Part shown: piece after piece, positions 41,524-48,127 of the stretch
Layout: each line of letters begins with the position of its first letter
Numbering within the stretch: the first letter of the stretch is position 1
NCBI GenBank assembly: GCA_043801935.1
Contig: JAZDLO010000235.1
Location: 1 to 63,860 of the forward strand
DNA length: 63,860 nucleotides
Reading direction: 5' to 3'
From: a bacterium
Lineage (GTDB): Bacteria; Actinomycetota; Thermoleophilia; RBG-16-64-13
Made by a program: the position numbers and the translations under genes
Notes under the pieces: generated by a model
Databases searched by the model: none
The model's input: only the letters and a program-made list of their open reading frames with translations
What the model was told of the DNA's origin: nothing

Positions 41524-43341
41524 ATGGCCCGGCACCGCAAGGGGCGCAGCCACTCGGAGCGGCGCCGGGCGACACTGGTGAGGGCCGGTCTCATCCCGGC
41601 TGGCGATCCCACCGGGCGGTCTTCCAGCGTCGCCGGAGTGATCGTGCGCAAGGGCAAGAGTCTTGAGGTGGAGCCCTTGTTCCAGCCCGGCCCGGCGCTG
41701 CCGGTGGAGCGTGGTCCGATCCGGCCCCAGCCCGGTGATCTGGTGCTGTTCACCTTCTCCTACGGCTTCAAGGCGCGCATAGTCCGACCTTTGGGCAAGA
41801 GCAACGTGCTGCCCGACGTCATGGAGGCTCTACTCGTTGACCATCTGGTCCAGCGGGGGTTCAGTCCCGAGGTGCTGGCCGAGGCGGCGCGAGCGGCCGC
41901 ACTTCAAGCGCGACCTGACTCCGATCGGACCGATCTGCGTGCCCTGTACACCTTCACGGTGGATCCGACAATGGCCCAAGATTTTGACGACGCTCTGTCC
42001 TTCGAGCGGACCGCGGAGGGGACCACCGTGTACGTGCACATCGCCGACGTCTCGTACTTCGTGGGCGAGGGGAAGGCTCTCGATCGGGAGGCCTTGCGGC
42101 GCGGGAACTCGGTGTATGTGGCGAGCGGGGTGGAGCCCATGCTGCCACCGATGCTCTCATCGGGGGTCTGCTCTCTCCGACCGGACGAAGACCGCAAGGC
42201 GGTCACCGTGGAGATGGAGGTGGACGACCGCGGACGCGTGCTCCAGACCCGTTTCTACCGGTCACTGATCCGGAGCGCGAAACGGCTCGACTACGAACAG
42301 CTGGAGCGCGTGTTCCGGGGAAAGGAGGCGGTGGATGCAGAGCTTGCCGAGCCTCTCGAGTGGGGCAGGGTGCTGGCTCAGCGGCTCAGGAAGATAAGGC
42401 ACGAACGGGGCAGCCTGCGGATCGACACCCCCGAGCCCGAGTTCGAGTGGGACGAGGCCGGTCAGGTGATCGGGGCCGATCCCAGTGAGGAATTGGAGAG
42501 CCACTGGTTCATCGAGAGCTACATGGTCCTGGCCAACGAGCAGGTGGCTTCGTTCCTGGAGCGCGAGCACGTGCCCACGGTATTCCGGGTGCACGACCTG
42601 CCCGACCCGTTCCATGTCGACCACCTGCTCGACATCCTTTCCAGCCTCGGTCTACCCACGCCCGTTTTCGACCCGATGATGGCGACTCCCCCGGATATCC
42701 GCCGTGTCACTCGCGAGACCGCCGAGTGGGTCGATCGCTATACACCGGCTGGTCGGGGCAAGGCCGCCCTGGTGCAACAGGTGCTGAGGGCCCAGGCCCG
42801 GGCGGTCTACCAGACGGCCAACATCGGCCATTTCGGGCTGGCGTCTCCGACCTACTGCCACTTCACGTCGCCCATCCGGCGCTATCCCGACCTGCTGGTG
42901 CACCGGGGTCTGCTTGGGCGACTGGGTCTGGGCCCGGCGCCCATCACGTCGATGCTGCCGGACTGGGCAGAGCATTGCTCGCGCACCGAGCGCGAGGCCG
43001 CCAAAGTGGAACACAAGGCAGATGACATCGTGCTGGCCCATCTGCTCAAGCGACGTCTGGACGAGAAGGGCTGGCGTGAGAGCGTCTTCGAGGGCCAGGT
43101 GCTCAGTCTGACCCGGCGGGGGATGTTCATCCTCTTCGAGCGCCTGTTCCAGGGTTATCTGTCGGTGAGCGAGCTCCCCCGGGACCAGTATCGCCTCAAC
43201 GAGTTGGAGACCGCTTTGGAAGCACGAAGGTCTGGCACAACATACAGGGTTGCTGATATTGTAAAAATAAGGGTACAGCTGGTGGATGAGACACGGGGTA
43301 GGATCGACCTGACTTTGGCGGAGGAAGAACTTGAATCCTGA
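41524..43341 (+). CDS. rnr: RNase R / RNB-family exoribonuclease
   Basis: DP..AQDFDDA, VHIADV, HFGL...YCHFTSPIRRYPDL, S1 domain; near smpB-ssrA. Confidence 0.9.
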   Translation: MARHRKGRSHSERRRATLVRAGLIPAGDPTGRSSSVAGVIVRKGKSLEVEPLFQPGPALPVERGPIRPQPGDLVLFTFSYGFKARIVRPLGKSNVLPDVMEALLVDHLVQRGFSPEVLAEAARAAALQARPDSDRTDLRALYTFTVDPTMAQDFDDALSFERTAEGTTVYVHIADVSYFVGEGKALDREALRRGNSVYVASGVEPMLPPMLSSGVCSLRPDEDRKAVTVEMEVDDRGRVLQTRFYRSLIRSAKRLDYEQLERVFRGKEAVDAELAEPLEWGRVLAQRLRKIRHERGSLRIDTPEPEFEWDEAGQVIGADPSEELESHWFIESYMVLANEQVASFLEREHVPTVFRVHDLPDPFHVDHLLDILSSLGLPTPVFDPMMATPPDIRRVTRETAEWVDRYTPAGRGKAALVQQVLRAQARAVYQTANIGHFGLASPTYCHFTSPIRRYPDLLVHRGLLGRLGLGPAPITSMLPDWAEHCSRTEREAAKVEHKADDIVLAHLLKRRLDEKGWRESVFEGQVLSLTRRGMFILFERLFQGYLSVSELPRDQYRLNELETALEARRSGTTYRVADIVKIRVQLVDETRGRIDLTLAEEELES

Positions 43342-44413
43342 GGAGCCCGATCGAGAAGACGTCGCTGAACCGTCCGAGACGTCCGAGACGGTAGAGACGC
43401 CCCCGGCCACGCCACCGGAGGGCGACGGTGTTCCTTCGGGCGGCCGAAAGCCCCGGAAGAAGCGCCGCCGCAGGACCGTTCTCATCATCGTCGGCGCGGT
43501 ATTCGTGGTAGTGTTCGTCGCCTCATTCATTACCGCCGAGGCAATGAGCACCAACTCTTCCTGTAACAGTTGTCACGAGATGAACCCTTACTATGACAGC
43601 TGGAGCGCCTCGGTCCACAACGGCGCCGACTGTGTCGATTGTCACATCCCGCCCGGGTTCCCCAATTTCGTGAAGGCGAAGATCTTGTCTTTCGAGGAGC
43701 TTTGGGTTCATCTCACGGGCCAGCACTTGCCGCCGTTCGCGGTCACGCGCGAGCTGCCCCGGAGTAACTGTCTTGAGTGCCACACAGACGGAGGGGGGCA
43801 GACGGTGGGCACCACCACCTTCCCACACTCCGCCCATGCAGCGGTGCTGTGTGTCGACTGCCACGTACGCGAGGTCCATCGCACGGTTCACCCGCCGTAC
43901 TTCGTCAAACCCATGCTCATGGCCCGATGCCTCGAGTGTCACGACAGCCGGATCGGGTCGCCGCCCAGCGAGTGCAGTACGTGTCACGAGCCGCCGCACG
44001 AAGCGCGCGGAGAGTGCGGCGGCTGCCACGGAAACAACAGCTTCTCGCAGATGACACCGGCGGATCATCCTCTGCCGCTGTCCGGCGGCCATATCGGTGT
44101 GCCCTGCGCGGACTGCCACGTGGCCAGGGCCGGCGTCGAGCTCATCCCGGGCACCTCTTTGGCAAAGCCGCCGGGGATCACCTGCGTCTCCTGCCACGAG
44201 GAGCAGCACCAGGGGCTGACCGACTGCGCTCAGTGTCACACCCTGGAGGGCTTCTCAGCTGCGAAAGCAAGCTTCCAGCATCCGCAGATAGGGCAGCACG
44301 TGCCGACGGGAACACGCATCCTCACCTGCCAGAGCTGCCACCCGTCCTCTGACTACGGGCAGTCGGACTGCACGAACTGTCACGAGGATGGGCCGCCAAG
44401 CGCGGGAGAATAG
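43331..44413 (+). CDS. Membrane-anchored multiheme c-type cytochrome, 12 CxxCH, NapC/NrfH-type N-terminus
   Basis: Basic patch plus TM helix, CNSCHEM first heme, 12 CxxCH counted; TTG start with GGAGG RBS overlapping rnr end. Confidence 0.9.
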   Translation: MNPEEPDREDVAEPSETSETVETPPATPPEGDGVPSGGRKPRKKRRRRTVLIIVGAVFVVVFVASFITAEAMSTNSSCNSCHEMNPYYDSWSASVHNGADCVDCHIPPGFPNFVKAKILSFEELWVHLTGQHLPPFAVTRELPRSNCLECHTDGGGQTVGTTTFPHSAHAAVLCVDCHVREVHRTVHPPYFVKPMLMARCLECHDSRIGSPPSECSTCHEPPHEARGECGGCHGNNSFSQMTPADHPLPLSGGHIGVPCADCHVARAGVELIPGTSLAKPPGITCVSCHEEQHQGLTDCAQCHTLEGFSAAKASFQHPQIGQHVPTGTRILTCQSCHPSSDYGQSDCTNCHEDGPPSAGE

Positions 44414-44512: not shown

Positions 44513-44980
44513 ATGAGACCCACCGGCATCAAGCTCATCGCGCAGAATAAGAAGGCCTACCACGACTACCACGTCGAGGAGACGTTGGAGGCCGGCATCG
44601 CCCTCACCGGCACCGAGGTCAAGTCCCTGCGGGCCGGCCGGGTGAACCTGCGCGACAGCTACGCTGCTATCGAGAAGGGCGAGCTCTTTCTCATCGGCTC
44701 TCACATCAGCCCCTACGAGCAAGGCAACATCTTCAATCACGATCCCCTGCGCCCGCGCAAGCTACTGGTGCACGCCCGGGAGCTGCGCCGCCTGTACGGC
44801 AAGGTGCAGGTAGCCGGGTACACTTTGGTGCCCACCAAGCTGTACTTCAAGGATGGCCGGGTGAAGGTGGAGATCGGTCTGGCCAAGGGCAAGACCACCT
44901 ACGACAAGCGCCAGACTTTGGCCAAGAAAGAGGCTCAACGCGATATGGAGAGGGCCTTCCGCTCCCGCGACAGGGAGTAG
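44513..44980 (+). CDS. smpB: SsrA-binding protein
   Basis: [31 protein letters not shown]. Confidence 0.98.
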
Positions 44981-45021
44981 TCACTCCCTGCCGCAGCCCG
45001 GCCGGGCGAGGACCCATGCTG

Positions 45022-45027
45022 TATACT
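45022..45027 (+). promoter_or_regulatory. Possible -10 element for ssrA
   Basis: TATACT about 50 nt upstream of the mature tmRNA 5' end. Confidence 0.4.
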
Positions 45028-45076
45028 TGCATAGCTCAGTCAGCGCGGTTTCAGGAGCCGCATGTCTGGGTCTCGT

Positions 45077-45439
45077 GGGGGCGTCATGGTTTCGACGGGG
45101 CTCATGTCTGAGCTTAGGTAGCGAGCCGAGATCCCAGCCGTTCTCGTTAAACAGGCTGGAAAACACAATTGCCAAACCTGAATTGGCTCTGGCCGCTTAG
45201 TCTGACTAAGACTTAAGCGCCTGTCGCGCCTCCCGTGCCTGCCGGGGAGGGTCGTGGCATAAACCAGGCGGGCTCACTCTCGGCGAGTGCCGCCGGCGTC
45301 GAGGGAACATGAAGGTGGCTGGTCAAGCGCACCCTGCTCCTACGGGGGCGTGCGGCGAGAAACATAGTAGGGGCTACGCTCGTAGACACCTGGGCCAGAC
45401 GGGTTTCGGACGGGGGTTCGATTCCCCCCGCCTCCACCA
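45077..45439 (+). ncRNA. ssrA: tmRNA, tag (A)AKPELALAA
   Basis: Acceptor stem GGGGGCG/CGCCTCC-ACCA with G3.U, GGTTTCGAC, T-arm GGGGGTTCGATTCCCCC; tag ORF 45171-45200; follows smpB. Confidence 0.97.
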
Positions 45440-45502
45440 ACCTCTCGGGACTACCCGATCTTAGGGTGATGAACCCCTTCCTCCCGCACGCCTTGCCACC
45501 AT

Positions 45503-45518
45503 TGTGCACATGAGCACA
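45503..45518. promoter_or_regulatory. CRP/FNR-family-like palindrome
   Basis: TGTGC-N6-GCACA centred about 85 nt upstream of the predicted TSS. Confidence 0.4.
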
Positions 45519-45559
45519 TCATCGCCTTTCGTGCGAGTATTCTACCTTATGAGCGCTTA

Positions 45560-45588
45560 TTGCACTCTGCGCGCAATCATCGTATACT
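45560..45588 (+). promoter_or_regulatory. Sigma70-type promoter for the riboswitch/surface protein operon
   Basis: TTGCAC-17 nt-TATACT. Confidence 0.75.
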
Positions 45589-45639
45589 CACGATGGATAG
45601 TCTCGCGGTATTTGCGTTGGATCATGCGAAGAAGCGAGA

Positions 45640-45732
45640 CCGGGGTGCGATGACCTCATAGGACCAGTATCGGTTGCCGGGAGTGCGTGACACTCCAGTC
45701 CTCTGAGAGAGCAAGTGGTGAGACCGACCCGG
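45640..45732 (+). ncRNA. c-di-GMP-II-type riboswitch aptamer (variant)
   Basis: P1 CCGGG/CCCGG; kink-turn UGC-GAU-GA...GA-GCA; P3 CUCA-U-AGGAC/GUCCU-C-UGAG; pseudoknot GG-UUGCC/GGUGA-GA-CC; 3' signature GAGCAAGUGGUGAGACCGACC. Confidence 0.8.
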
Positions 45733-45789
45733 ATGCCCGACACGTCTGTCGGGCCTATATGGGACGGAACGCTCTCAAGGAGGGGCAGC

Positions 45790-47406
45790 ATGAAACTGAA
45801 GACGCCTCGACGGATCGGTCTTGGCTCCGCATTTGCAGTCGCGACTCTGGTCGTGGTCGTCCTTTCCGCCTCCCTGGCGTTGGCGGACAAGCCGACACAG
45901 TTGGAGATAAACAAGGTCCTGATCGCGGGCACCAGCGACTACGACGAGCAGGAGTTCTCGGTACAAGTTCAAGGACTTGGAGAACTGGTCTACGACCAGA
46001 TTCACACCTTCGGGTCAAACAAGAAGATCACTCTTGACTTGCTTCCGGGCGAGTACACGATCACCGAGGTCGACATTCCCTCGGATATCCAGAGTAGCCA
46101 CAGTAGCGGTCAACAAGTCACAGTGACCGAGGCAGAAAAGGCCACCGTCACGGTGACCAATACGTACATTGAGACCGAGAGAGAAGGCATCGAGGACTGG
46201 GCCGGCAACGGCGGCGAGAACAACTGCCAGTACGGTGGCTACTATCACTGGATCCTGACCGCCGGAGGAGGCGGCAGCACGGGATTCGAGGTCCTCTCGG
46301 CTGAACTTACGGTCCACTACAAGGGAGTCGCGGAGACGACCGTCACACAAGGCGAACGCCGGAGCGGCACGGGCAAGGGTGCCATGCACTTCGACGTTCA
46401 TGGCGCGCCAGGGGAAGTCCTGAGCGCCTCTGCGACATACCGGTATATCGGCACGCCTGGCAACCTCGTTCTGACCATCAGCGACGCGACCTGCGACCTG
46501 GCGGAGACGGGTTCACTTCAGATCACCAAGGAGATCGTCGACGCACCTGACGCCACCTGGACCCCCGCGGACTTCTCGATCTCGGTGACGGGCCCATCGC
46601 CGGCGAAGACGGTCGTGCACTCCGGGGCGTTCCCGGCCGGCGGGGTGATCACCATCAACGATCTCGATCCAGGCACCTACACGATTACCGAATCCGACCC
46701 GGGCGCCAACTGGATCGTGACTGGCTCCGGGGACGTCAGCGTGGTCGTCCGCCAGACTACCGGCGTCACCATCACCAACACCTGGACGGAGGATGAGGAC
46801 GAGATCCTCGGCTCTCTGGTGGTCACCAAGTCGATGGTGAACCCGCCCAACGGTACTCCCGTCACCCAGTTCTCGGTACAGGTGACCGGCCCCGGCGGCT
46901 ACGACGTCACCCGGTCGTTCTTGGGCAACGGAACGGCCACGTTTGACGATCTTGCCCTTGGCGTATACACCGTGGCTGAGATCGCCGCGGGCGGTGACTA
47001 CACGGTGGGCTACTCTCTGGACGACCAGATCACCTTGACCCCGACCGACCCTGACGGCGCCATCACCATCACCAACACCTGGTCCACGACTAGTAGAAGC
47101 CTGTCCCCGGACACCACGGAACCGACCGACACCACAGAGAGCTCCGATACCACTGCGTCGACGGATCTGCCCGCGACGACCGAGCCCACCGACGTCGAGG
47201 TCGAGACCACCGAACCAACGGACTCGCCCACCACCTCGGTAAGCTCGGGCCCGGTGACCTCTACGCCCACCCCGAGCGGCATCCAAACGGGTGGCGGCGG
47301 GACCGCCGGCCTCGGAGTCGGGATCTGGGCTCTCATCGCCATGGCGAGTGTCCTGGGTATCGGTCTTTCGGCCTCCGCCGTTCGGCTGCGCCAGAAGGCG
47401 AAGTAA
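45790..47406 (+). CDS. Sortase-anchored surface protein with repeated SpaA/CnaB-like beta domains and a T/S/P-rich stalk
   Basis: Signal peptide (ASLALA); repeats L.I.K...F.V.V.G...L.PG.YT(I/V).E...(V/I)T(V/I)TNT; C-terminal PSGIQTGGGG, TM helix, RLRQKAK; AAGGAGG RBS. Confidence 0.85.
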   Translation: MKLKTPRRIGLGSAFAVATLVVVVLSASLALADKPTQLEINKVLIAGTSDYDEQEFSVQVQGLGELVYDQIHTFGSNKKITLDLLPGEYTITEVDIPSDIQSSHSSGQQVTVTEAEKATVTVTNTYIETEREGIEDWAGNGGENNCQYGGYYHWILTAGGGGSTGFEVLSAELTVHYKGVAETTVTQGERRSGTGKGAMHFDVHGAPGEVLSASATYRYIGTPGNLVLTISDATCDLAETGSLQITKEIVDAPDATWTPADFSISVTGPSPAKTVVHSGAFPAGGVITINDLDPGTYTITESDPGANWIVTGSGDVSVVVRQTTGVTITNTWTEDEDEILGSLVVTKSMVNPPNGTPVTQFSVQVTGPGGYDVTRSFLGNGTATFDDLALGVYTVAEIAAGGDYTVGYSLDDQITLTPTDPDGAITITNTWSTTSRSLSPDTTEPTDTTESSDTTASTDLPATTEPTDVEVETTEPTDSPTTSVSSGPVTSTPTPSGIQTGGGGTAGLGVGIWALIAMASVLGIGLSASAVRLRQKAK

Positions 47407-47449: not shown

Positions 47450-48127
47450 ATGCAGATGCGGAGGCGCCGTGGTCCCCGATGGCCCGCGGCGCTCCTCCTC
47501 GCCGCGTCCTTGGTGATGGTCGTGACCGCGACCGCTCTGGCCACGAGTGAAGGCCAGGTTGTGAAGACCGCCTCCTCGGTGCCCTCTTCGACCAAGCAGA
47601 CATTGGGCGCCATGATCTCGCCCACTTCCTCTGCAACCGCCATCGCCACCAGCTTGTCGACAACGACCACCATCTACATCCACGCGATCCCCCACCCTGT
47701 TCGCATCGTCATTCCTGCCATCGAGGTCGATGCGACCACCATAGACGTGGGTCTCCTCGACGGCGGGGACATGGAGGTGCCTCCCTTCGGGAAGGCTGGA
47801 TGGTATGCATTGGGGCCGGCACCCGGAGCAGGCGGCCCCGCGGTTCTGGTCGCCCATGTGGACTCCACCAAGGGTCCGGACGTCTTTTACCGGCTGAAAG
47901 ATCTGAAGCCCGGGGATGAGATCCTCGTCTACGGTGAGGACGGCGATCTGGCGACGTTCGTCATGGACACGAAGGAGCAGCAACTCAAGAGTGAACTACC
48001 GGTCGAACGCATTTGGAGCGACACCTGGGAGCCGGTCATCCGTCTCATCACCTGTGGGGGTGAGTTTGACCGCGATTCTCGGCACTACCTATCCAACGTC
48101 ATTGTCTACGGGCACTTGACGAAGTAG
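47450..48127 (+). CDS. Class F sortase
   Basis: P.RI.IP.I.VDA, GWY..G..PG..G..V..AHVD, F..L..L.PGD, LITCGG.FD...RHY.SN; start may be GTG 47429. Confidence 0.9.
   Translation: MQMRRRRGPRWPAALLLAASLVMVVTATALATSEGQVVKTASSVPSSTKQTLGAMISPTSSATAIATSLSTTTTIYIHAIPHPVRIVIPAIEVDATTIDVGLLDGGDMEVPPFGKAGWYALGPAPGAGGPAVLVAHVDSTKGPDVFYRLKDLKPGDEILVYGEDGDLATFVMDTKEQQLKSELPVERIWSDTWEPVIRLITCGGEFDRDSRHYLSNVIVYGHLTK

Follow-up and report, generated by a model that had tools for sequence, protein, structure and literature searches.

The 5' leader of a predicted surface protein gene on GenBank JAZDLO010000235.1 carries a real, conserved structural variant of the c-di-GMP-II-GAG riboswitches (RF03169), a catalogued and apparently ligand-orphan family. 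Taken together, the evidence somewhat favors a combined reading in which this RF03169 aptamer, equipped with a covarying extra hairpin, senses cyclic di-GMP (c-di-GMP) and, acting as an ON switch, promotes translation of a sortase-anchored surface protein. All coordinates refer to the window—the whole stretch of 63,860 nt analyzed here—and to its plus strand unless marked otherwise. The single locus alone is ordinary; what this work adds is the covarying hairpin, a swap at pocket positions 37 and 69 with natural canonical forms, a predicted anti-Shine-Dalgarno (anti-SD) platform specific to one family of genomes, and an association with bldD.

Screening the whole window against Rfam with cmscan returned two matches above the gathering score, the transfer-messenger RNA (tmRNA) at 45077-45439 and RF03169 at 45634-45738. 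The latter scored 51.9 bits (cut-off 40; E 2.4e-7), spanned the entire model (1-86 of 86) and is the only RF03169 match in this genome. In contrast, the canonical model RF01786 scored 34 bits, below its gathering cut-off of 53.5, and c-di-GMP-II-GCG (RF03170) scored 42.9 bits, below its cut-off of 47.9; RF03170 has Rfam clan CL00127 and G69 in common with RF03169, but position 70 of the window aptamer is A45723, not C. We therefore regard membership in RF03169, rather than in RF01786 or RF03170, as virtually certain, as an earlier note made from the sequence had guessed in pointing to a GAG-type model. The match ends 51 nt before the ATG at 45790 on the same strand, as expected of a cis-acting element in a 5' leader.

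We take the name ‘GAG’ to denote pocket positions 69, 70 and 73—here G45722, A45723 and G45726—and ‘GCG’ to denote C at position 70. The GAG family was reportedly defined by Weinberg et al. 2017 (PNAS), who are said to have separated it as a possible altered-ligand class. In the portions available to us, PMC5473149 gives that study as a reference and PMC9943018 merely lists the c-di-GMP-II-GAG model. Titles and abstract listings of the literature revealed no ligand test of this family, and the defining paper may itself cover ligand tests, the hairpin or bldD.

The class II elements that the earlier note had described all lie where it placed them. In the RF03169 fold, P1 pairs 45640-44/45728-32, P2 45646-48/45711-13 and P3 45655-64/45698-707, the last with a U-C mismatch, and the kink-turn joins G45652/A45653 with G45709/A45710. 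The pseudoknot P4 links 45672-78 with 45717-21 and 45724-25, includes two G-U pairs and leaves G45722 and A45723 bulged. Numbering after the crystal structure 3Q3Z was mapped onto the window by spacing, an inferred correspondence based on the residue list in the accessible part of PMC7288161; the pocket roles of A69, A70 and G73 are those given in PMC13715770. On this mapping, the pocket strand G69 A70 C71 C72 G73 A74 occupies 45722-45727, with the letters of the RF03169 consensus, and the equivalent of C37 is 45671, the likely partner of G45722.

Relative to RF03169, the window aptamer shares C37, G69-A70-G73, the kink-turn, P1-P4 and the 5'-leader position; it adds an 18-nt hairpin in L3 that lies outside the model, its pocket floor and wall carry G13/A74 and U14-A60, and it is predicted to have a family-specific anti-SD platform built from the P3 3' and kink-turn strand. 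Compared with the canonical RF01786 aptamer of Clostridium acetobutylicum (3Q3Z), it has the same fold, retains A61, A70, C71, C72 and G73, and likewise precedes a surface-anchor gene, but it carries C45671-G45722 (C37-G69) for U37-A69, plus the extra hairpin.

This hairpin (GGAGTG-CGTGA-CACTCC, 45680-45696), reported in the earlier note as a deviation 3' of the pseudoknot strand, is present and covaries, but is common to many relatives. Searching RF03169 in 61 genomes of the organism's family (hereafter the host family) returned 26 matches in 24 genomes, comprising 19 long hairpin forms (17 genomes), one short GAG form and six canonical class II aptamers. The covariation figures derive from a MAFFT alignment of the 19 long forms and overstate the case, because kin sequences are not independent. 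With this in mind, 92.8% of 570 helix cells were paired (P4: 100%), as compared to 31-48% in slid registers, and ten helix pairs changed on both sides, a count reached by 3 of 500 shuffles. Covariation among homologs, put forward as a check in the earlier note, is thus evident. For the extra hairpin, 97.9% of cells were paired, and two of its pairs show double-sided changes, one in 7 and the other in 8 of the 19 sequences.

A pattern scan of GTDB extended the survey to at least 130 loci. Of 137 listed matches, 108 passed a rough helix filter—which admits a few false ones, such as L050—and 90 were distinct; the GTDB counts that follow hold among the matches listed. The pattern fixed C37 and G69 and therefore cannot test covariation between these positions. 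About 27 of the 90 distant GAG aptamers harbor an insert of ≥22 nt folding at ≤-4 kcal/mol, and all 14 hairpin-insert loci given to cmscan passed RF03169. The record titles with matches name Actinomycetota, Chloroflexota, Acidobacteriota and others. In some copies the hairpin sits 5' of the pseudoknot strand instead. Judged from these comparisons, the extra hairpin recurs as an optional add-on to L3, varies in sequence and is not unique to this locus. Two further genomes (G085 and G086; L222-L241) hold 10 and 11 RF03169 matches each, some in tandem; these mostly precede LPFTG-type surface proteins and bldD, many carry the hairpin 5' of the pseudoknot strand, and one (L241) has C at position 70.

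With respect to the pocket, the earlier note had read GA-CC-G as an alteration of the canonical strand. The letters stand (G45722, A45723, C, C, G45726), but the supposed alteration is the catalogued RF03169 signature, whose consensus has G69 and also C at position 37. Positions 37 and 69 are C-G in 16 of the 19 long forms and U-A in three (L012, L024 and L025), all from one genus, in which another long form (L011) is C-G. Among the canonical hits in the host family, U occurs with A in five of six, the sixth (L013) not being parsed cleanly. We read C37-G69 for U37-A69 as a compensatory pair swap. The U37-A69 pairing in 3Q3Z is our assumption, in line with the covariation seen here; we found no paper confirming this pair in the crystal structure. 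A further pocket variant, C for G at position 73, occurs at L007:1501-1605(+), where the aptamer lies directly upstream of a sortase gene, and also at L047, L137 and L140.

The G at the junction of P1 and P2 (G45645, equivalent to G13), also listed among the deviations, is present opposite A45727 (A74), yet proved to be a common variant rather than a special one. It occurs in 5 of the 19 host-family aptamers, always with A74, and outside the host family (n=85) the 13/74 combinations were A-G 31, A-A 28, G-A 13, G-G 1 and other 12. A specificity change at this base was considered and rejected: G13 goes with A74 in 5/5 cases in the host family and in 13/16 elsewhere. Because the pocket floor described in PMC13715770 is a non-canonical purine pair, G45645 looks like a stacking platform.

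As to the ligand, the aptamer's relatives and their downstream genes lead us to consider c-di-GMP the probable main ligand in vivo. The three U37-A69 forms precede secreted proteins similar to those behind C37-G69 forms of the same long aptamer. At six GTDB loci, a hairpin-bearing GAG aptamer lies directly before bldD, and all six pass RF03169 in cmscan: L057:2488-2589(-), L066:2488-2595(-), L086:752-855(-), L088:2466-2574(+), L098:2488-2592(-) and L103:2467-2567(+). The encoded BldD proteins all match solved structures and retain the RxD-X8-RxxD motif (6/6), which is described in the part of 10.1101/2021.08.26.457767 available to us as the motif through which BldD binds c-di-GMP. Metagenomic bldD loci were ranked by likeness to these six BldD proteins and hence form a biased set, in which 14 of 77 loci with enough upstream DNA have a hairpin-bearing aptamer by pattern and 9 of 20 scanned with cmscan pass RF03169. 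The loci noted are L242, L243, L245-L247, L249, L255, L256, L260, L266, L268, L269, L273, L275 and L276. No riboswitch before bldD was named in the titles or abstract openings of the literature listings.

Beyond bldD, one further GTDB aptamer with the extra hairpin precedes a GGDEF gene. Of 72 downstream open reading frames picked, 57 were scanned and 23 had Pfam hits, including 6 BldD, 1 GGDEF, 1 glycosyltransferase and 7 proteins with surface-repeat domains. No potassium or osmolyte transporter was among these 23.

Several observations weigh against c-di-GMP and the pair swap. One bldD leader (L260) has A at position 37 with G69, and the U37-A69 forms probably reflect one event in one genus. 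A gene such as bldD need not be regulated by its product's own ligand. Moreover, A69 uses its sugar edge to contact the ligand (PMC13715770); with G69 this edge gains an amino group, and specificity could therefore change even if 37 and 69 pair.

It is thus conceivable, albeit unlikely, that in an otherwise identical switch C37-G69 shifts recognition to an adenine-containing cyclic dinucleotide—3',3'-cyclic GMP-AMP (3',3'-cGAMP) or cyclic di-AMP (c-di-AMP)—or to another signal. The base read by the A69 sugar edge is the upper ligand base, and 3',3'-cGAMP, its adenine occupying that place, is bound by a class II variant at 11.1 nM (PMC13715770); from base-pair geometry, the donor/acceptor pattern of G69 would suit adenine. 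That variant, c-di-GMP-II-Bh, which binds 2',3'-cGAMP as well, shares the class II scaffold, and adenine-containing ligands fit its pocket, but it was engineered by deletion from a Bacillus halodurans aptamer, with adenine retained at the A69 position; unlike the window aptamer it lacks G69, and no extra hairpin is described for it (PMC13715770). Arguing against this shift, C37-G69 and U37-A69 forms precede genes of the same type, and the downstream genes encode BldD, GGDEF and surface proteins without the transporters mentioned above.

The complement of nucleotide cyclases points the same way. Hypr-type GGDEF enzymes carry Ser/Thr at the specificity position, according to the accessible part of PMC6456294. 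The genome has nine GGDEF matches, with Asp at that position in 8/8 aligned and the ninth being a contig-end fragment; in six relatives, 53 GGDEF proteins comprised 48 D, 2 E, 1 N, 2 unreadable and 0 S/T. No Hypr-type GGDEF was therefore found in the window's genome (93% complete) or in the six relatives, whose genomes are incomplete, nor was there a SMODS match in the 93% complete genome. A DAC domain, of which this genome has one, occurs in 60/61 host-family genomes and GGDEF in 61/61; being near-universal, their presence does not discriminate between ligands, and we dropped this comparison as a ligand test. No match to the c-di-AMP riboswitch (RF00379) was found in the window or genome. A search for DncV-like proteins gave no match anywhere, its controls were also silent, and it is hence uninformative. 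Two contig-end GGDEF fragments (G000:C208:19190-19489 and C144:23574-23885) have a degenerate GGDQF and the same overlapping sequence, probably representing one gene or a duplicate.

A bolder version would make the hairpin-bearing GAG aptamers a distinct class, in which C37-G69 has retuned the pocket to an adenine-containing or new cyclic dinucleotide from an unrecognized enzyme; this signal would control sortase-anchored surface proteins as well as translation of the master regulator BldD in deep actinobacteria, and the U37-A69 forms of one genus would have reverted in specificity. This we hold to be still less likely. Since natural C37-G69 and U37-A69 versions of the same long aptamer precede genes of one kind, the ligand question is directly testable. 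Were c-di-GMP confirmed, this widespread orphan class would emerge as the RNA sensor of c-di-GMP in Actinomycetota, Chloroflexota and Acidobacteriota, and c-di-GMP would likely control both the synthesis and the activity of BldD in a feed-forward loop; if another ligand binds, a new signal would be revealed.

As for the output of the putative c-di-GMP switch, structure predictions make a translational ON mechanism operating through an anti-SD helix likely. The ligand-free minimum free energy (MFE) structure of 45595-45800 contains an 11-bp anti-SD helix, in which CCUCU 45700-04 pairs with GGAGG 45779-83 of the SD (45778-83) and GAGAGC 45707-12 pairs with GCUCUC 45771-76. In the folded aptamer, the switching strand CCUCU-GA-GAGAGC (45700-45712) provides the P3 3' and kink-turn/P2 strand; otherwise it is the predicted anti-SD. 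Its partner strand in the OFF state, assigned from the MFE structure and homolog tests, spans 45760-45783, whose first part (45760-67) sequesters the pocket/P1 3' strand 45724-31. As the modeled transcript lengthens, its MFE fold is the nested aptamer at 45733 and at 45755, but no longer from 45768 onward.

Homologs largely recapitulate this pattern. In 18 of them (L008 was excluded, its contig ending at the SD), the MFE contained at least five anti-SD pairs in 16, the anti-SD duplex exceeded linker shuffles in strength in 13 (p≤0.05), and imposing the aptamer fold made the SD more accessible in 14. P3 was lost at full length in 18/18, a hairpin of ≤-5 kcal/mol directly followed P1 in 17, and the whole 3' half beat shuffles in 12, with p 0.08 for the window itself. 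In the alignment, 78.9% of anti-SD cells were paired as compared to 46-62% in slid registers, the helix shows C-G for U-A where the SD is GGGGAGG, and 3/500 shuffles had as high a covariation score.

During transcription, the aptamer (P1-P3 plus the extra hairpin) would fold first. Without ligand, the strand 45760-45783, once made, would invade the pocket/P1 strand first, followed by the kink-turn and P3 3' strand, and the SD would be buried (OFF). Bound ligand—on our reading c-di-GMP, read through the C37-G69 pair that replaces U37-A69—would lock the pseudoknot, kink-turn and P3, so that the SD stays open (ON). The extra hairpin would serve as an optional L3 structural appendage with no role in setting specificity. 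The predicted switch is thus a short, mutable helix.

Not all data fit this mechanism equally well. Two homologs (L003 and L007) have no anti-SD helix in the MFE; on two of five measures the helix was no better than shuffles (147 and 319 of 500), the former figure being for pairs changed on both sides; and SD-like purines pair easily with CU-rich strands. P3 is weak at aptamer length in several homologs under the pseudoknot-free model. The OFF fold (-91.9) is more stable than the nested ON fold (-64.2) by ~28 kcal/mol, with the pseudoknot (~-7), kink-turn and ligand outside the model, and switching would therefore have to be kinetic. Outside the host family, the P3-strand anti-SD occurs in 6/90 GAG aptamers, and among bldD leaders 0/14 have the platform at p≤0.05 (2/14 at probability ≥0.5). 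We therefore rejected the P3-strand anti-SD as a general GAG mechanism; as modeled, the platform is specific to this family.

The earlier note had called another platform plausible, in which GUCGG of a hairpin at 45735-45754 pairs instead with the aptamer's CCGAC. This was not supported: the pairing has an ensemble probability of 0.0 and is not conserved, and although possible on paper it was rejected, with 56% of cells paired and 108/500 shuffles as high. The 45735-45754 element is instead a spacer hairpin predicted in both states (P 0.96 at all lengths). Its persistence also tells against the proposal that a c-di-GMP aptamer acts here through that exchange, by transcription termination or mRNA stability, as does the lack of any terminator-like site on the + strand of 45000-46400. 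In favor of such an output, the pocket/P1 3' strand has a downstream pairing partner in 23 of 90 GAG aptamers outside the host family, 14 of them with terminator-like sequence, and in the window the same strand is sequestered in the OFF fold; overall, we deem it improbable.

Very improbable, in our view, is a degenerate or constitutive leader that has lost switching. The score of 51.9 bits falls short of the up to 67.7 in homologs, and the two G-U pairs in P4, the U-C mismatch in P3 and the strongly favored OFF fold could signal decay; however, every pocket, kink-turn and pseudoknot position is retained, the helices covary in 19 sequences, and a DNA run contains a related contig with no more than 6 differences across 45626-45784.

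Upstream of the aptamer, the promoter boxes given in the earlier note, TTGCAC (45560-45565) and TATACT (45583-45588) at a 17-nt spacing, are present, but a consensus promoter scanner did not call them, and the -35 box matches 3/6 consensus letters. A loose best-match script, run without a control, located similar boxes in 16/19 homologs, lying 31-49 nt before the aptamer match and scoring weakly (6-9 of 12). A promoter at 45560-45588 is plausible from its sequence, with a predicted transcription start near 45595. A 200-nt contig from RNA run X3 (depth ~4), identical to the window, covers 45595-45794 and begins 7 nt past the -10 box; it is a weak hint only, because contigs cannot reveal starts and DNA may be present. 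No sequencing run contained half the query words, the absence of RNA coverage across the coding region in X3 and X13 is uninformative, and the small shares point to no habitat. The 5' hairpin (P0, 45600-45640) proposed from GTCTCGC (45600-45606) and GCGAGAC (45634-45640) was found, adjoining P1; its sequence is variable, and a comparable hairpin is predicted in most homologs. Folding of 45595-45800 gave z = -4.49, with 0/200 shuffles equally good.

The gene at 45790-47406 encodes a predicted surface protein of 538 aa with a signal peptide, three SpaA (PF17802) stretches, a Thr/Ser/Pro stalk, a C-terminal IQTGGGGTA motif, a hydrophobic helix and a basic tail; an atlas search with residues 128-240 returned only scores under 0.9. 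It is followed by a class F-like sortase (PF04203) at 47450-48127, its start codon inferred, which scored 156.2 bits against class F model NF033748 (curated cut-off 166; E 4.9e-46) and far lower against class E, and had no other tblastn match in the genome. The adhesion-type context suggested in the earlier note therefore agrees with the genes found, and according to the accessible part of PMC9481103, canonical class II switches are often upstream of surface anchor proteins. A sortase match is present in 12/19 long-form loci, and a related sorting motif lies ≤1.5 kb downstream in 9/18 other loci. In 10 of the 16 long-form loci that were scanned the tmRNA is ≤1.5 kb away, placing the cassette frequently behind ssrA; in the window, smpB and the tmRNA gene (44513-45439) are directly upstream of it.

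A few observations concern related leaders and neighboring genes. At L006:1501-1605(-) and L019:1383-1487(-), an SD and a tiny open reading frame (6 and 32 codons) come after the long aptamer, and at L006 there follows a membrane protein gene that by eye resembles polysaccharide biosynthesis genes. A weak second RF03170 match in the same genome as the window (G000:C77:2220-2310(-), L322; 25.1 bits, E 0.05) is possibly due to chance. Between RNase R and smpB, the window encodes a multiheme cytochrome c (43331-44413; NapC/NirT N-terminal region plus c7-type hemes). Canonical class II aptamers at L014:1501-1585(+), L016:1501-1585(+) and L026:1501-1585(-), with similar leaders at L013 and L015, precede secreted CxxCH proteins that are multiheme cytochrome-like by eye; cGAMP reportedly controls cytochromes in Geobacter, and in G003 no Hypr-type GGDEF was found among the GGDEF proteins aligned. 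Finally, a NiCo riboswitch match (39.3 bits, cut-off 37) lies at L005:2360-2458(+), ~750 nt downstream of a GAG aptamer.

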